A stretch of 63,051 nt of DNA, filler included, from Asterionella formosa (GCA_002256025.1; 8 parts of 8 records of this genome joined end to end with filler, not necessarily neighbours in it), one strand, 5' to 3'. Counted from the whole stretch's first letter, positions 1 through 51,585 are shown. The notes: generated from the letters alone by a model not told the origin. Made by a program: numbers and translations.

Positions 1-2117
1 GCCTTGAGAATCTTGACTGGTCACCTTTTAAATATTTATCCCTCAAAAGTGCTTGTTTTTGGTCATCACAACGGCCATTGCAATGGCCATCACTTACCTT
101 CTCTTATCTTTGTTCCTTAATGTGATCTTGTGGATTGCTTGATCACTGCTGGTTCAAGAATTGGAACTATGAGATGATGGTTCCTCGAGGGCACTCATTC
201 CAATTTAGTTTTGAGCGATTTTAACATTGGTTGTCAAGGCAAGGCAAAGCAAACATTTTGAAATTACAAAGCAAAATGCACAGGACATTTGGTCTGAGAA
301 GGAGGAATGAACCATGACAAGTTTGATGAACCTCAAAACTGCCAAGGAAGATAGTTAATGCTAGAATATAATTAATAACATACATTAGTAAGTGGAAAGG
401 ATTAATAAGTTCTTATATATAGCAGCATTATGAATCATATGTGGTTGAGAACAAGTATGTTCATTGCTTTGGTCCATCTTTCTTTGTCTACTTCGCAACA
501 ATTATATTAACGTATGTTTGGCCGTTGGTGGAGACCATAATGCAATGCATTCAAGATTTAGTTGCCTTTCTTTTTTCCTTCCTCCAAAGATGTTTACAAA
601 CAGAAATTATAGTGGTACATCAAATATGTTGAGCCCACTCAATTTCAGAAATGAATTTGCGTGGGTAAATGTTCCTGTTTCAACAAACAATAAAGGAGGA
701 CCCACATTCCCCATAACATCAATCTTGTATCCTTGATTGATGCAAGGCATTCTCTTGTCACCACGAAAATCATTCCTCTCAATTCCAAGACTCTCTTATC
801 AATTGCATCATTTTAAATTACTTTGAAATGGATCAAATCCTTCTTGTACTTTTCGTTGAAACCTGTAGATATCTTTCTCCTTTCCTTGTTTTTTGGTTGA
901 AACTTGTAGACAGAATTCACCACAGCAAGCTTTTGGCAATTCTGACAAATCTCCTCTTCATGTTCAGACATGGGCATTGGATTTATGCTGACGGGCAAGG
1001 ATTACCTTCAGTGCCTTGCTTGTTAGTATTGTTACCATTTGTCGTGTTTCTTTCTATTCGTTCTCCCTTTGTCACTGAAAATCAATTGCAAGTTTCCAAC
1101 AAGCTCATGGAACATGGAACGAATGGTACTACCTGTCACCAAGAACATCTGAGACTCAATGAGGATGACATTGCTGGTCGATCATAGTTATAGCAAGGAG
1201 TTGATGGTGAAGATCAAACAATGACAAACAGAGGTATCATCATGGTGAGTGTAGCAATCAAGTGTGAGGCTGTGGCTCCTCAGTGTATGTGGCATGTATT
1301 TGTCAAGAGATTCATGATGGTTTATTATTAACAAGTGGTATGTTCATTCATATATTTAATGAAGAGGAAATGAACGACATCAACTTGGACGACTCTACTT
1401 TTATGTATTCAAAACAAATATTGGGTTGTGCTAAAATTTACAAATGTAGAACCAGCTACTGGTACAATGGTCCGGTGTGTACCTGATGTACTTTGGGGGG
1501 GCCACCAAGCCATAATTTGGATCGAAGTGCTGTATACTACCGGTAGGTACATGGTATGGTATGGTACCAGGTACCCTGGTACCAGGTACCAGGTACAACA
1601 GGGGCCCTATCGTGAGAGACCACGTATGTACCAGCACACCCAAGTCCTTGCCTTTTTGCTTGGTGACGCTGGTTCCTAAGATACCAGTACGATAGTTGAC
1701 AATTGCCCATTCACACATGATACTTACGTAATTTGCATCGAAGTGCATAAACACAGATTCCATCAAGACAACTACTACATATGTAAAATGCCACGAGAAA
1801 ACAGCTACCAGAAAAAAACGGCCGTTCATCCGGTATTTCCCTCAAATGATCAAACTTCACTCCAAGTTCAACATAGTAGTACTAGATATACCGTGTTAAA
1901 TTATGAAATGGGAATGAACGGAAGTTCAGACTTCGGCTGAAAAACCGGCCTACTGTCCGAACATTTCTACGAAAATCAGCGTAAGTGTCCGGTAGATGTC
2001 TGATGATTGGCAATATCGGATGCGAACAATTGATTCAAAAAACCGATATTAGATTCAGTCCTTCAAGATTGCGAAGAAAGGTTCAACCCCTAGCTTCGTC
2101 TCCAAATTCTGATGGAT

Positions 2118-2347
2118 GATGGGAACACTGAACTGCAGGCTTAAATCTGTATTAGTCTCGTAAAGACAAGGTCACATGATTCACGTCAAATTGCCCCTTT
2201 AACAAAGCGACGAGAAGATTGAGCCTCTATATTTCTCTAGAAGATGGGAACACTGAACAGCGGGCTTTAATCTGGAAAAGAAATCAAGTCAAACTCGGCA
2301 CAATTCTGTTCACAATGGCTCCTTAACAAAGCGACGAGAAGCTTGAA
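2118..2347. repeat. Degenerate ~125-bp tandem duplication upstream of the SEL1 gene
   Basis: GATGGGAACACTGAAC at ~2118 and ~2243; TTAACAAAGCGACGAGAAG at ~2199 and ~2323. Confidence 0.75.
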
Positions 2348-2530
2348 TGAGAAGAGTGGGCACAAATGCGAAGATTCTCGACCCCATTTTCAAATTTAGT
2401 TGCTGTTCATGAGCTCATAAATTCAATTTGCAGTGAAATTTCATTAGTATCACATCACACATCCTTAACGATTTATTCAAAGTAAAAAGAGACTGCGTTA
2501 GCATTGACAGTCAACCTTTCTCACTCAATC

Positions 2531-4072
2531 ATGACGCTCCTTGAAGATATGATTATGCCTGATGCAGCCAATGGCTCACATATTGATGAAGATGGGCTGC
2601 CGAAGGTTAAAGTTAATACTCACACTTTCCCGAACTTTGTTGCATGGCCCTTTGATGGAAGCCATCACAGGGGTTGGCATCCTGACCCAGAGAGGAGAAA
2701 CATCTGGGCTTATGTTATCAATGAGAAGCATCCCTGCTGCGATCCACCTAAAACAGATATTCACAGACTATTTCAGGATGCAAACATAGAGAAGAGTAAG
2801 TACACTGATTCTGCGTTAGATCTCGCTTTGAGATTATTTCAAGAAGCTATGGATAAGCCAGTTTCGGCTCGTTTCATTCACGAGGACAATATGCTTCGGT
2901 CATTTTCCATGACCAATGTGGGCATACTTCTCGCAGTAAGAATCCCGCCCAAAGCGCAAACTTATACGCCGACAAGAAAGTGCTTCCAGTACTTTTTCCA
3001 TTTCTCGCTATCCTTGCTATGCTTGCTGCTTCCTGGCGCAATGCCGCTGCCACCGCCAGGGCTACCACCACCAGCGAGTGTGTTGAATAGGGACAACTAC
3101 ATAAGAAGTGAACGCGAAGCTGTCTTGCTTTTTAAAATTGGCGCCTTGGGCTACAAGCTTCCTCAATGCAAGTACCTGTATGGACATGCACTCATACACG
3201 GTACAGGAGGCATTAAGAAGGATATTCCAAAAGGCATGGCGTTCCTCCATGATGCAGGGAGTGTCCTTATTGCTGAAGCTCTTTTCGAATTAGGATCCAT
3301 TTATGAGCGTGGCTGTATGGAAAACTTGAAAGAAGGCATAACCAAAGACTATGCGATGGCACTTGACTTCTATGAAGCAGCAAGACAAGCTTCTACAGAT
3401 ACTGATCAAAAATTACGTGAAAATGCTTGGACTCCCCAAATATTATTGACAAAGCGTCTACTTCGGATCGACAATATTCATCTGCAAGAGGATACAGTAC
3501 AGAATGCTGCAGGGTTGCAGTTTGCCTGGACCATTCTTGGTCATTCATTCCTATTTAGTGCCACGGCATCGCTTGCAAGCACTGTCCAACCTAACCATTA
3601 TGCACCATTACTGATTCTTATTCCAATCCTGGGTATCCTTTTGGCTGGTTACTCAATAGACCATACCTTTGATACATACAGATTCATGCAAAGAAACCAA
3701 GAACTTGTTCAAGGTATGCTGTGCTCAAAGTATGCAGCATACAAGGCAATTATCAATAATATTGTCATTTCCTTGAACCTACCCAAGGAGGATGCCCCAA
3801 CAAATCCAATCTATTGTTTGGCAATTGAGGAGCAAGATGAAGTTGCGAAACAGGAAAAATGCATAAATGAAAGATTTCGCCGCCATGGAAAGTTAGGAAG
3901 GTCACTTATATTAATTTCTGGATTGTTCTATCTCATCTGGCTCATTCTTCTTATCTTTGAGGTTAAATCCAAAATGTCAGGGTGCAGCTATTGGAATAAA
4001 TCACCTTGCATGTTATGCAATGCTGATTCTAAGGCTGACCATGAAAATTTCCTGTGCATGGCTGCAGGATAA
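2531..4072 (+). CDS. SEL1-like repeat protein with C-terminal 3-TM module
   Basis: Intact single-exon ORF (first ATG 2531, TAA 4070-4072). Two SEL1-like repeats (CKYLYGHALIHGTGGIKKDIPKGMAFLHDA; ALFELGSIYERG...GITKDYAMALDFYEAA). Hydrophobic helices follow (FAWTILGHSFLFSATASL, LLILIPILGILLAGYSI, LILISGLFYLIWLILLIF), then a Cys-rich tail. Confidence 0.8.
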   Translation: MTLLEDMIMPDAANGSHIDEDGLPKVKVNTHTFPNFVAWPFDGSHHRGWHPDPERRNIWAYVINEKHPCCDPPKTDIHRLFQDANIEKSKYTDSALDLALRLFQEAMDKPVSARFIHEDNMLRSFSMTNVGILLAVRIPPKAQTYTPTRKCFQYFFHFSLSLLCLLLPGAMPLPPPGLPPPASVLNRDNYIRSEREAVLLFKIGALGYKLPQCKYLYGHALIHGTGGIKKDIPKGMAFLHDAGSVLIAEALFELGSIYERGCMENLKEGITKDYAMALDFYEAARQASTDTDQKLRENAWTPQILLTKRLLRIDNIHLQEDTVQNAAGLQFAWTILGHSFLFSATASLASTVQPNHYAPLLILIPILGILLAGYSIDHTFDTYRFMQRNQELVQGMLCSKYAAYKAIINNIVISLNLPKEDAPTNPIYCLAIEEQDEVAKQEKCINERFRRHGKLGRSLILISGLFYLIWLILLIFEVKSKMSGCSYWNKSPCMLCNADSKADHENFLCMAAG

Positions 4073-4987
4073 TGTGTCAGTCTCTGCTTTGTTTCCATTT
4101 CCATTCTTGTCACCTTCACTTCCTTGACTTCCTTGTAAGATTCATGATTCAAAACTGATACATCCTACCTAGATGGTTTCCTGTCACTCTCCCTACTTCT
4201 AAATGATACACACAATTTAATCAATTATCCCACAAGCTTCCTGAGCATGCACATACATGAGAAGGAAAATTAGCCAATACCAACTCCAGTTCATGGCTTT
4301 TCTTCCTATTCTCGATATATTCATTTTACATAGGCTGATATAGCACTTAATAACTAATAATACATATATTTCTATATGATTCACTCTTATGTGGAATTGC
4401 TGGCTTTACAGCATTGCGCACATGGTGGGCCAAAAGGAAGGAAGGACACATGGTTGTCCTTCGACTGGCCATTTTTTGCTAACATATATACCTATCCTAG
4501 ATTACCAGCACATACCATAACCATGGCAAATATGGTGTAACAAACAAATTGTAATATAATGAAGGAAAAACAGCTACCCAAAAATTTCTAGATCCATAAT
4601 TATTAACAACTTACAGGCCATTCAGCTGACCACAGAATTTGCACCACATCACCATTCAGGTGGTCTGACGTGACCACACATGTGAACGGAATATTATTGG
4701 TTGCACTTAGATAAACATCAGTCATGATAAAGGATAAGATTTACAAATTATCCTGTCTTATCCAGTACTTTCAAGGACTGTCTTGCAACAGTTGTGATGT
4801 TCTCTGGGTAGATGCACTGCCTGATTGCTTTCCCTTTAATATGATCGACAAAAGCTGGTGCCTTCATTATAGACATAGACTAGCATTAATGTATATAAAT
4901 ACAACTGAGTATAATTGTATACATACATGGATACCGAACACATGTGATGGCACAGGATCCAATTCTTTTATTTTTTGTAGGGGCATC

Positions 4988-8566: not shown

Positions 8567-10589
8567 GTAACTAAATTTTTAAGTACGCGTTATTGAGCCT
8601 CAACTTTAGTGTGGAGTTCGTTGGGTCGCACATGACCTATGTACGACGCTAGATATCATTAGATGGTATAAGTCCTATATAACGTTAACCTTATAGGCTC
8701 TTCTATACAGACCATATCCTTGTTTACTCTCACTGTAAAGATTTACACAATACACACTGTGTATGTATACCACGTCAACCATAAGTGAAAGGTGCCTGCA
8801 CATGACTACCTGGTACCATGGAACCCATACGTAGTACATACATATACATGTACACGAGAGTGATCATGCATGATTAGTACGTGATGCTATACACACGGTT
8901 ACTAGTATGTAGCTCGTAGCACATATTGCATTATGTACCCGAAGCTAAATGTTACGTGATAACTATTGGTACAGATGTATCTCTAGAATAGACGTACCAA
9001 TGCTAGGCTAAAATATGACACCTAGCATGGACTCTTGACACCTAGTACATGCCCTTCTCATCAAGACTGTGGATCCCCTTGGACTAGGAACTTATATAGA
9101 TACACTAATCATTAAGCTCATAATTACCCAGAACCTACTTGTTAAATCCTGACAACTGTAGGGCAGCACTGGGGCGCAAAGCGCCCGGTTCGATTAGATG
9201 GACATGGACTTAGACAGGTGAAGAGGGACAATGAGGGGTTGTGCAACGGATAAGAAATTTTCGGATTGTGCCCTGATGGCGTTTGTCTTGTCGAATTTGG
9301 GATGTGAGGCATAGTTGACCTGCTAGATAGATTGCCAGCAAGGCCGTCATTGCCAACGGGGAATGAAGTAAGCGTTGAGAGAGAGGAAGGCCAAATAGAT
9401 GACCACGTTAATCAGCTGGGTGCACTAGTGGCAAGGAGAGTGGCTCCATAGACGAAATCATTGCGATATTCCACTGTTCCATGGCATAGGCGCATAAGGA
9501 GTTGAATAGTTGACTTGTCCAATGAGAGGATTCATAGGGTTGGTCGGGATGCCTGATGGAGTGATAGGTTGTCATGGCATGAGCCCAAGAAACTGATAAA
9601 TTTCCCCTTAGGAGGTGTTTCCACCCTATAGCTGTTTGTTGGACATCTGCCTGATAGGTAATCCAAAGAAGAGGGTCATTTGGAGAGGGGTCTGGAAGAG
9701 GCCAAAGTGGGGGAATGTCGCCATTTTCCCACAATTGGAGACCATGGGTGAGGGCAAGGAAAATATGGGGAGGAGTGCTAAGTTTGGATTTCAGATGGTC
9801 AGAGAGTGTGGTCCACTTTGTATCCCGAAAGTGGCAAGAAGCTGAGCAGGTGAGGACATGATCGTGGTCCTCAACGGCATTGGAGCAGCGTGGGCATAAG
9901 GAAGTTGGGGCTTTGCCATGGTGGCGATGTAAGATTTTGTTGGTGGGCCATTGTCCATTTATTAACTTAAACATTGCTAATTTGCGTCCATATGAGAAGT
10001 ATTTATTTGCGCTGGTGGAAGACGTCCAGTCAATAGAGTCAGAGATTGACTGCATCCATCTATGTCGTGTTTGGAAGTATGTGAATTGTTTGGGCTTATA
10101 GTACGCTTTCAGAGTTGTAGGGATCATCTGAGAGGTAACTTGAGATCCCTGAAAAAGGAGGGTGGCGGGGACTTGAGGGGAACAAAGCGGAGTAATGGCG
10201 GAGCGCTGGGGGCAGTAGAGATAGGCTAAATGAGTGATTCCATCGACTTGGATATTAAGTTTTGCAGGCAGAGTTAAGGCTTCATAGGGTTTGCTGTCAT
10301 CTTGATGGCTTTTGATGTGAACCGCCTGGAGATCAACCGGGATATATGCAAGGACCTTCTTGACTCAGTGGATAAGGTCCCAGTCTGGGTGGAGACTGTG
10401 GCGAATTGAGTGTTGATGGTGGTGAGACAGAGGGCCTGGTTGTCGATGTGAGCTCCAGTGGTGAAAGGAGTAAGTGTATCTAGAAGATCGTGGTATGTAA
10501 GAAGAGCCCGAAGAGCAAGAACAGCACCAAGATAGCCGCAGCACTTCTCTGTCTGGAAGGAGAAAAGGGGAGTGGTGGTAAAGGTGGTG
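8567..10589 (-). mobile_element. 5'-truncated non-LTR retrotransposon (RNase H/CCHC-bearing, Ambal-like), copy 1
   Basis: Closely similar to 21288-22820; CPRCSNAVEDHDHVLTC zinc knuckle and the C-terminal half of RNase H, with frameshifts; interrupted by a solo LTR at 8633-9165. Confidence 0.85.
8633..9165. mobile_element. Solo LTR (533 bp) inserted in the LINE 3' UTR
   Basis: TGACCTA...TAGGGCA ends (TG..CA, near-inverted), flanked by GCACA/GCACT; the empty site GGGTCGCACCGGGGC is visible in the sister copy at 21346-21360. Confidence 0.8.
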
Positions 10590-13848: not shown

Positions 13849-15073
13849 ATGTCTTCATCTTCTTCTGGTCAAAGGAGAGCAGCCAGGGAGGGCTTCCCTT
13901 CCTCTCCAAGGCTGCTTGAATGTCGCAGTCACCAGCAACAAGAACAACAACAGACTCAACCGGAAGAAGAGGAGGAGGAACGACGACGAGAATGAAGATG
14001 ACACTGGTGCTGATGAGTTTGCCAGTGACGATGAGGACAGTAGGATAGGTGTCCAAGGTGTTTCTCAGATTGGTGTTTCTGGGGTTACTCAGTCCCCATC
14101 AAGGAACAACAACGATTTTTCACGTGCTCCTACTACTTCAGTTTCAAGAACGGCAACTGCCAGGCGAGCACCAACGTTTCCAAGAGCTCGCCAAAGCATG
14201 CAGAGTCGGAGTCAACAGTTCAGGATCAATGAGATTCTCTCATTGCTGGAAGCCATTTCTACTCACCTGCCAATTGAATCCCATGAATGGGAAGTTGTTG
14301 CATCACAGCACAACGAGAATTTCCCAGACAAAGAACGGACAGGACCTTCACTTCGCCGAAAGTTTTCACAGCTGCACAAAGTTAAGAAACCAACTGGGGA
14401 CCCAACATTCCCTGCTGAGGTGAGATATGCCAAACAAATTTTTCGAAGAATCGAGCAACGAGCAGATGAAAGTGCTGAGATTGAATCCACTGATCTTGGA
14501 ATAGAGAGAGAGCCCAATGAGCCCAATATTGATGAGCCAAATGTTGATGATTTTATAGCGATTTCTGGGGAGAGTGAAGACAATGGTGGAGCAACATCTG
14601 CCGCTTATGCTAATTTTTCTGGTTCAAGATTTCCTCAACCTATTGTGTCCCCTCGATTTAGAGATAAGGCAGTGTCAAACAATACTGGGCCAGTTGAGAA
14701 AGTGCTTTCTCTTCTTTCGACACAGTTGCTTCACAAGGCTACTTGAACTGATACTGATAACCTGCAGCAGCAACAACAACAGCAGCAACAACTGCAGCAA
14801 CAGAACATGATGAACATGATGATGATGTCAATCATGGCATCATTGTTGAATCATGGGGTATCTCAAACAACCACCTCCACTGGCAGTGCCAATCCCACTC
14901 AGGCAATTATGAATTCAATTATTGCTTCAAACATGATTTCAATGCAGCAAACAATGCAAAGCCAAAATCTAACCTCATCAGCAGGTTCCAATGCACAACA
15001 AACTTTGTCTGCCTCAACTCAATGTTAAACACCAAAAAACAACAGTGGTAGCAGTAGTAGTGATGATGAATAA
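13849..15073 (+). pseudogene. Accessory Myb/SANT-like (DUF6818-like) protein of the Harbinger-group element
   Basis: FRINEILSLLEAISTHLPIESHEWEVVASQHN...RTGPSLRRKFSQLHKVKKPTGDP core; frameshift near 13975; in-frame TGA at 14744-14746 followed by a Q/M-rich tail in the same frame. Confidence 0.7.
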
Positions 15074-50415: not shown

Positions 50416-51585
50416 TCAGGTTGTGTTGAACTTCACCAAAAGATCAAGGTTGTTGCTGAGATGAATGTTTGGATTCTGGCATAATCTTCTAGTACCTGCC
50501 TTATTCAACCTCGAGTAGTGTGTGATATTGTTTTTGGTAGTTCCTAGACTGCTACCGAATAGTCCCAAGAAGTTGTCAACCTGAACATTTTCTTTCGGAG
50601 CAACAACAATTGCTTCACCTCCCGTATCTGTGATTGTGTCTTCAGACAAGTCGAGATCTTCCAACAAATAATGTTGCTTGAAAGCACCAACTAACGCAAT
50701 AGCGCCAGTGTCACTAATACAGTTCATCATGAGGCGAATATCCCTCAGGGACATGTTACTCGTGAATCCTTTCGTGATAATGGCAGCTCCGTTGTCATTC
50801 AGGTTGTTTCCCCACAAGTACAGCATGCGAAGAGACTTTGTCTTTGCTAAAAGTGAGAAAATTGAATGAGCAGCATTGCTGTCAACATGAGATCCCGTAA
50901 TCACTAGCCTCTGCAAGGTAGTGTTGTGTTCTGCATACGAGCAGATACCCACAATTTCCTCAGAACCCAATTCAGTATGCACAAGAAGCAAGTTTTTTAG
51001 GCTGCGGTTGCGAAGCAACATTCGTCCAATAGAATCTGAACATGTTGGTCCGATACTTCCTTGTTGAAGGCAAAGCTCTTCAAGGTGAGTGTTTCTCCGA
51101 AGAGCCTCCGCAATCATGACTGCGCCTTCTGATCCTATTGGGTTGTTTTTGATATGAAGGACACTAAGCTTCGTATTGCATCTCAGCATGGAGGCAAGGG
51201 AATTGATTGCGTAGGGTCCAATCTCGTTGTTTTCCAAGTGAAGCTCTTTAAGTGAATGATTCTCTTTCAGGGAGTCAAATATGGCAATGGACCCATTCCC
51301 CGTAATGCAGGTGTTGCTCAATCGCAAAACTCGGAGTTTTGTGTTCACCCGCAAAACAGAGACTAATGCAGCAGCAGTGCAAATATCAATTGAGTCTCCA
51401 TCAATCCACAATTCTTCTAAATGTTTATTTTCTCCTTGTAACGAATATAGTATGGTTCGAAAGGCATCACAGCCCAATTTCGGAATGCTCAGTCGAAGTG
51501 TCTTGATGTTCTTGGCTTCGTAAATGAGCTCAAAATGTTGAGACAACCATCTATGGTTGGGTGAGCTGCTTCGTCCCATAAACAT
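50416..51585 (-). CDS. Ribonuclease-inhibitor-like (NLRC3-like) leucine-rich repeat protein, possibly pseudogenised
   Basis: About ten 28-aa repeats of type N..L..L.L..N.IG..GA..IA.AL; C-terminal LNKAGTRRL. An upstream in-frame ATG at 51678 is separated from the ORF by a TAG at 51640-51642. Confidence 0.85.
   Translation of the reverse strand: MFMGRSSSPNHRWLSQHFELIYEAKNIKTLRLSIPKLGCDAFRTILYSLQGENKHLEELWIDGDSIDICTAAALVSVLRVNTKLRVLRLSNTCITGNGSIAIFDSLKENHSLKELHLENNEIGPYAINSLASMLRCNTKLSVLHIKNNPIGSEGAVMIAEALRRNTHLEELCLQQGSIGPTCSDSIGRMLLRNRSLKNLLLVHTELGSEEIVGICSYAEHNTTLQRLVITGSHVDSNAAHSIFSLLAKTKSLRMLYLWGNNLNDNGAAIITKGFTSNMSLRDIRLMMNCISDTGAIALVGAFKQHYLLEDLDLSEDTITDTGGEAIVVAPKENVQVDNFLGLFGSSLGTTKNNITHYSRLNKAGTRRLCQNPNIHLSNNLDLLVKFNTT

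Follow-up and report, generated by a model that had tools for sequence, protein, structure and literature searches.

Within a 63,051-nucleotide stretch of DNA from the diatom Asterionella formosa (GCA_002256025.1; eight parts of the genome joined end to end with filler, hereafter the window), positions 2531–4072 hold a single-exon gene. The predicted protein joins about two Sel1-like repeats to a C-terminal module of three membrane helices. It is very probable that this is a real gene with this architecture and that its module is homologous to a marginal branch of the bacterial membrane protein family 8xMP (Pfam PF24838). The gene and its parts are listed here.

2531–4072, plus strand: coding sequence, 513 amino acids plus stop, single exon; an open frame with 13 non-self homologues that are full-length or nearly so (39–48% identity)
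2268–4366, plus strand: stretch covered by an RNA-seq contig, likely an unspliced mRNA, with a leader of ~263 nucleotides and a trailer of ~294 nucleotides
2531–3100, plus strand: N-terminal region, residues 1–190, with the motif DGLPKV..WPF..H.GW..CC..IH, a helical stretch and a variable hydrophobic loop (140–190)
3101–3397, plus strand: about two Sel1-like repeats, residues 191–289, the most conserved part of the family
3470–3580, plus strand: amphipathic lead-in (HLQEDTVQN) and semi-polar helix 1, WTILGHSFLFSATASLAS, residues 314–350
3602–3664, plus strand: transmembrane helix 2, APLLILIPILGILLAGYSI, residues 358–378, hydropathy 2.25
3665–3898, plus strand: charged helical hairpin between helices 2 and 3, residues 379–456, predicted cytosolic
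3899–3970, plus strand: transmembrane helix 3, LILISGLFYLIWLILLIFEV, residues 457–480, hydropathy 2.66
3971–4069, plus strand: Cys-rich C-terminal tail, CSYWNKSPCMLC...C, with four Cys, predicted to lie on the non-cytosolic side

The reading frame is open from 2504 with no internal stop, and its earliest in-frame ATG is at 2531. A 2106-nucleotide contig from one public poly(A) RNA-seq run was collinear with 2268–4366 (0 mismatches, 0 gaps, no joint), and contig cover was absent on both flanks (2000–2267 and 4367–4600); such a contig can neither prove transcription nor show its strand or level. The pattern is as expected from an unspliced mRNA, and the gene is apparently transcribed. The initial annotation of the window had described the gene as intact and intronless, in agreement with the open 513-codon frame and the gapless, jointless contig from a poly(A) library. 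A possible in-frame intron in the variable residues 140–190 (GTAAGA at 2936) was rejected because no frame-keeping AG acceptor was seen by eye and because the RNA contig is collinear. Several short upstream open reading frames (ORFs) were also seen by eye in the presumed 5' leader (2268–2530), for example one from an ATG at 2315 to a stop at 2324 and another starting at 2347. The gene was single-copy within the window when searched with tblastn.

The protein belongs to a family that has so far carried no functional name. A word-indexed search of 5.8 billion proteins returned 13 non-self homologues of 310–579 amino acids, none of them functionally named, and an exhaustive HMMER search with a profile of the module against 1.84 billion representatives retrieved 49 proteins at E <= 1e-3, 25 of them at E <= 1e-10. 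Members with a named source were the diatom Attheya sp. CCMP212 and the green algae Pycnococcus provasolii and Pseudoscourfieldia marina, the green-algal form being a stand-alone module without Sel1; source labels read only 'hypothetical protein' or 'TPR repeat protein'. An alignment of 14 sequences (A1) contained 85 invariant columns, concentrated in residues 194–281 of the Sel1 region, 328–346 of helix 1, 365–375 of helix 2 and 388–403 at the start of the hairpin. Identity to the window protein was 26–36% over residues 1–189, 57–71% over the Sel1 region, 50–59% over residues 300–400 and 29–45% over the remainder. Sel1 preceded the module in 24 of the 28 scanned representatives longer than 300 residues, and one further representative had TPR only. 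The pairing of Sel1 with the module is thus constant across the family and not swapped, which runs counter to the earlier idea of one module served by exchangeable N-terminal sensors.

The homologues P0003–P0015, from metagenomes and metatranscriptomes, are mosaics. P0013 and P0014 have 100% identical N-termini and share 37% identity in their last part, where P0014 equals P0007 and P0008; P0003 and P0005 are 95%, 73%, 74% and 100% identical over the four regions. Either chimeric assembly of paralogues or recombination among paralogues would produce such sequences.

The N-terminal region (residues 1–190) matched no Pfam family, and its invariant or near-invariant columns in alignment A1 were D21, G22, W39, P40, F41, C69, C70, I77 and H78. 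The protein starts with MTLLEDMIMPDAANG and has no hydrophobic N-terminus. A proline-rich hydrophobic stretch, FFHFSLSLLCLLLPGAMPLPPPGLPPP (residues 155–180; 2993–3070), lies in the variable loop and is hydrophobic in this protein only, not in its homologues, as seen over residues 155–173. The Sel1 repeats were placed at ~3140–3390 by the initial annotation, and solved Sel1-repeat proteins indeed aligned to residues 191–287 (3101–3391), with E 1.4e-4 for 6ok3 and 6.5e-4 for 4bwr. The Pfam Sel1 model (PF08238) gave 22 bits on the window protein (E 2.4e-4; cut-off 30.7), matched 13 of 14 close family members and exceeded its cut-off in distant ones (e.g. 61.9, 45.6 and 44.5 bits). Language-model neighbours of residues 1–300 were likewise Sel1 families, COA7 homologues among them (score 0.92).

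Downstream of the repeats, the strings singled out by the initial annotation, QED...N...FAWTILGHSFLFSATA, LLILIPILGIL and GLFYLIWLILL, are present at residues 319–349, 360–371 and 464–475. Helix 1 carries ten invariant residues (W333, I335, L336, G337, H338, S339, F340, L341, F342 and A346), and this stretch aligns with a bacterial WFVxSQSFLFSAYA motif. In helix 2, P365, L367 and G368 are invariant and align with a bacterial IPxLG motif. The hairpin holds 11 K/R and 10 D/E, with R388, N389, V393, M396, K400 and A403 invariant, and the Trp of helix 3 is invariant in eukaryotic and bacterial rows alike (W171 of alignment A6). The tail pattern CSxW....C was seen again in remote members of eukaryotic origin, and the bacterial proteins lack it.

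AlphaFold2 (AF2) modelled residues 300–513, given a 33-row alignment, with a predicted local distance difference test (pLDDT) of 86 and a predicted template-modelling score (pTM) of 0.75. The model has three long helices (residues 314–349, 358–414 and 426–482), of which helices 2 and 3 extend beyond their membrane parts, and helix 1 (model residues 15–50) reached pLDDT 89–95. The full-length model from the 14-sequence alignment was poor (pLDDT 48.5, pTM 0.31) and was not used for fold searches. The loop joining helices 1 and 2 is free of K/R, and the one joining helices 2 and 3 has 11. This distribution, the missing N-terminal signal and the Cys-rich tail together suggest that the N-terminus and Sel1 repeats are cytosolic and that the tail lies on the far side of the membrane.

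The relation to bacteria was seen from several sides. Pfam 8xMP matched residues 338–477 of the window protein over profile positions 29–134 of 136, at 19.6 bits (E 8.7e-4), and matched six of 42 other family representatives, again sub-threshold (E 7.7e-5 to 6.3e-3). A 14-row profile of the eukaryotic module (A3), searched against 5.8 billion sequences, retrieved 16 small proteins of 110–245 amino acids on bacterial-size contigs (best E 6.2e-5), of which 10 carried PF24838. Their motifs read EHEDNLxGxRxxWFVxSQSFLFSAYA, IPxLG or IPxxA, LPPxQG and FxxVWxxLL. The pattern ED..N.R..W...QSFLF.A / IP.LG / F..W, which the initial annotation had given for small bacterial proteins with three transmembrane helices, therefore matches real PF24838-carrying proteins, and the likeness, well outside what chance would give, is read as remote homology. 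An alignment of the retrieved bacterial proteins (A4, 15 members) was compared with A3 in hhalign and scored 98.1% (E 7e-14) across 121 columns that take in all three helices, a value inflated by the choice of A4 for its likeness to the query; one reversed and 10 column-shuffled versions of A4 gave at most 3.7% (E >= 0.012). Of the A4 members, 14/15 matched 8xMP (best E 6.6e-8), mostly close to the cut-off, and a cyanobacterial ORF found with A3 (L019) stood above the Pfam cut-off at 31.0 bits and aligned to A3 at 94% (E 1.4e-7). Judged on these profiles, homology to the bacterial three-helix membrane family is real, but marginal by Pfam's definition.

A core 8xMP set (A5) was assembled from 201 Planctomycetota genomes, eight of which gave a member above the cut-off. 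Because these core members were only weakly similar (6%, E 0.006, with A3 and 45% with the bacterial bridge set A4), the algal module is best placed with a marginal 'SQSFLF' branch of 8xMP and not with its core.

A tree of 33 rows, built with a minority of the 49 representatives and without core 8xMP members, placed 18 of 19 eukaryotic modules in one supported group (96/98), on a long branch and separate from the bacterial sequences. The tree data are compatible with one split that divides eukaryotes from bacteria, with weak support (71/75). Because the tree is unrooted, it names neither a donor nor a direction of transfer. As far as sequence can tell, the module shares a common stock with small (~150–175 amino acids) bacterial membrane proteins at the margin of 8xMP. 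An endosymbiotic (cyanobacterial) origin was considered and found no support: in a six-frame search of 301 genomes sampled from the phylum of the Oscillatoria genome (G002), A3 matched three, one of the hits being L019.

From this conservation we propose the following mechanism. The N-terminal 300 residues, with the Cys/His motif and about two Sel1 repeats, would face the cytosol and lead straight into the module, which runs from the lead-in and the GHSFLF-bearing helix 1 through the P-x-L-G-kinked helix 2, the charged hairpin and the Trp-bearing helix 3 to the tail. The module would assemble into a homo-oligomeric ring in which helix 1 turns its conserved polar face towards a channel or an interface. 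On the cytosolic side, the Sel1 repeats and the helical hairpin may together act as a platform where a partner docks and assembly is controlled. The ring or channel is proposed because of the conservation pattern, the name of the family and the occurrence of the module on its own. Taken whole, as a real three-pass Sel1 protein with a regulated homo-oligomeric ring or channel whose ring part we infer, this reading is held tentatively and falls a little short of probable.

Several points weigh against it. Oligomerisation, channel activity, membrane location and orientation are inferences, all four of them, and the octamer is known from the Pfam name ('octameric membrane protein family') alone; a literature search found no paper describing 8xMP or PF24838. 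The window protein lies under the 8xMP gathering cut-off (19.6 vs 30 bits), the A3–A4 score is inflated as described, the similarity of A3 and A4 to the core members is low, and the A5 alignment of those members is itself poor (11–32% identity). Foldseek found no match for the module in the PDB at E <= 0.001, and PDB sequence searches with the module profile and the bacterial profile returned nothing relevant. VIA-align wide gave only generic long-helix bundles, ClyA, AhlB and Mrs2 among them, with a best Z of 11.3; because this value is within the range common for helical bundles, no fold was assigned. An ESM Atlas search with residues 300–513 gave no usable match. A four-copy homo-oligomer prediction of the module, run without the family alignment, scored 0.16 and 0.01 (mark 0.32) and is uninformative either way.

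The genomic neighbourhoods of bacterial 8xMP genes varied between loci. Six SQSFLF-type loci, the closest bacterial relatives of the algal module, came from Phycisphaerales, Verrucomicrobiae, Chthoniobacteraceae and Oscillatoria, and their neighbours (22 ORFs scanned) were varied, non-conserved and of housekeeping type, for example an epimerase, AcrB, TatC and a Na/H exchanger. Defence or mobile-element features occurred at seven of the 12 other 8xMP loci (L008–L019). The best core 8xMP gene (131 bits; 1450–2046, minus strand) is at L008 in a planctomycete genome (G100), where a ThsB-like TIR gene lies directly upstream on the same strand (2001–2384; Pfam E 9.4e-14, PADLOC ThsB E 1.6e-10) and another ThsB_TIR ORF occupies 932–1333 on the plus strand; the pair may be Thoeris-like, with 8xMP as the membrane effector. 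Single neighbours of note at four further loci are listed here.

L009: HigB-like toxin gene
L012: phage integrase gene
L014: PIN-domain gene
L018: EcoRI gene

A 441-residue fusion protein at L015 (753–2075) has 8xMP as its N-terminal module (33.1 bits) and a staphylococcal nuclease as its C-terminal domain (Pfam SNase E 1.1e-19), and its nuclease part matched the PADLOC candidate 'SNc+LTD' (E 1.8e-24). At L017 (572–3262), an 8xMP-like gene (28.1 bits; 1180–1896, minus strand), whose product has the motif LLPILG, lies between Caudovirus prohead protease and phage capsid genes of the opposite strand, in the manner of a prophage moron. A TIR-like identity for the N-terminal 130 residues of the L009 protein was considered and is unsupported (no Pfam match; BLASTP E 7.8). 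PADLOC 2023 matched neither the window protein nor the module nor any of 12 bacterial 8xMP-type proteins, the nuclease part at L015 excepted. That some 8xMP proteins act as membrane effectors is a lead, and one that does not reach the nearest relatives of the algal module.

The initial annotation had placed the gene amid decayed transposable elements, of which one remnant, a zf-RVT ORF, was seen. Elsewhere in the window, three ORFs, this one included, had a Pfam match and six others, of 224–973 amino acids, had none.

9408–10127, minus strand: remnant ORF of a reverse-transcriptase zinc-binding (zf-RVT) protein
14198–14746, plus strand: DUF6818 protein ORF, E 2e-12
50416–51585, minus strand: leucine-rich-repeat (LRR_6) protein ORF, E 2.3e-18

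Other explanations of the gene were weighed against these results. That it is no functional gene, but an open frame arisen by chance, a pseudogene or a piece of a transposable element, is scarcely credible: recognisable genes are few in the window and at least one retroelement remnant (the zf-RVT ORF at 9408–10127) lies among them, but the 513-codon frame, the full-length homologues with their 85 invariant columns, the collinear poly(A)-library contig with discrete ends and the confident AF2 fold of the module all contradict it. We regard as rather unlikely a membrane-anchored Sel1 adaptor or assembly factor, in which the helices would merely anchor the protein, perhaps dimerising, and the repeats would bind clients in the manner of COA7 or Hrd3/SEL1L. 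Known Sel1 proteins are mostly adaptors, which counts for this explanation, as do the high conservation of the Sel1 region (57–71% identity) and the COA7 homologues near residues 1–300 (0.92). However, the constraint on the module exceeds what an anchor needs, given ten invariants in helix 1 that include the polar H338 and S339, the P-x-L-G of helix 2 and the RN..V..M..K..A of the hairpin; the module also stands alone, without Sel1, in bacteria and in green algae, and the layout of Hrd3/SEL1L is not the one found here.

A role in innate immunity or cell death, in which the Sel1 repeats would detect a ligand of pathogen or stress origin and the module would respond with a lethal pore, by analogy with bacterial abortive-infection membrane effectors, is improbable in our view. 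Such a role would fit the defence or mobile-element context of seven of the 12 bacterial 8xMP loci (L008–L019) and the presence of several paralogue types in metatranscriptomes. It is opposed by the housekeeping, non-conserved neighbours of the six SQSFLF loci that are closest to the module, by the failure of any PADLOC model to match the module or a tested bacterial 8xMP protein, and by an N-terminal partner that is not swapped (Sel1 in 24/28 long representatives). The single copy in the 63-kb window and the good representation of the gene in an ordinary poly(A) library also argue against it. A bolder proposal is distinctly improbable: a ring-forming bacterial 8xMP effector, paired in some bacteria with Thoeris-like TIR proteins or found in prophages, would have been retained or taken up by photosynthetic eukaryotes (diatoms, prasinophyte green algae) and coupled for good to a cytosolic Sel1 sensor, giving a ligand-gated death or ion pore with prokaryotic immune ancestry.

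The preferred reading is a three-pass Sel1 protein whose module may form a regulated ring. The results define a conserved and previously uncharacterised family of algal membrane proteins and tie its module to a bacterial family. Annotation and homology are solid, and an immune function is not demonstrated by them. Should the module form a ring or channel, its fusion to Sel1 would offer a way to study how such an assembly is regulated. Should the defence-type surroundings of some bacterial 8xMP genes be functionally meaningful, eukaryotes would here have reused one more immune module of prokaryotes.

The closest known counterpart is the marginal bacterial 8xMP subgroup of Planctomycetota, Verrucomicrobiota and Cyanobacteria, with its motif HEDNL..R..W...SQSFLFSAYA / IP.LG / F..VW..LL. 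Common to it and the algal protein are the three-helix membrane module, the amphipathic acidic lead-in, W...(Q/H)(S/A)FLF..A in helix 1, P-x-L-G in helix 2 and F..W..LL in helix 3. In the algal protein, by contrast, H replaces Q in helix 1, helices 2 and 3 are linked by a much longer, charged hairpin without the bacterial LPPxQG, and both ends are extended, by a Cys-rich tail and by 300 N-terminal residues with the Sel1 repeats. A search of proteins of 430–2000 amino acids turned up no fused form in bacteria, which is weak evidence.

The initial annotation had also likened the module to Rip1 and to a 'RipA' family. Rip1 ('ring interacting pore 1') is a prophage-encoded anti-phage protein of Pseudomonas aeruginosa; a review describes it as a soluble sensor-effector that starts with an amphipathic helix and whose C-terminal half, as a 12-mer, wraps the terminase or portal rings of phages (PMC13434031). 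As described there, its architecture is not that of a three-pass membrane protein, and the proposed link is unsupported (PMC13434031). Rip1 and the window protein are both helical proteins proposed or shown to act as rings at a membrane, and Rip1 is said to sit among prophage morphogenesis genes, as the 8xMP-like gene at L017 does. Compared by description, the window protein differs in having two strongly hydrophobic helices (358–376 and 458–476), one semi-polar helix and an N-terminal Sel1 region, and in having no ring-binding C-terminal half. The name 'RipA' could not be confirmed; a literature search found no paper tying RipA to such a family.

In SEL1L/Hrd3-type proteins of endoplasmic reticulum quality control, a signal peptide is followed by many repeats in the lumen, and one C-terminal helix serves as the anchor. 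Sel1 repeats are joined to a membrane segment in both, but the window protein has no N-terminal signal, only about two repeats that are predicted to be cytosolic, and a conserved three-helix module, so that a signal peptide, a long lumenal array and one anchor do not describe it. The likeness to Thoeris-like pairs of a TIR protein and a membrane effector runs through the core 8xMP gene downstream of the ThsB-like TIR gene at L008. This arrangement was seen at one locus only, whereas the algal gene has no linked TIR or signalling enzyme and its closest bacterial relatives have no such neighbours. The adjacency at L008 suggests that an 8xMP protein can serve as a membrane effector.

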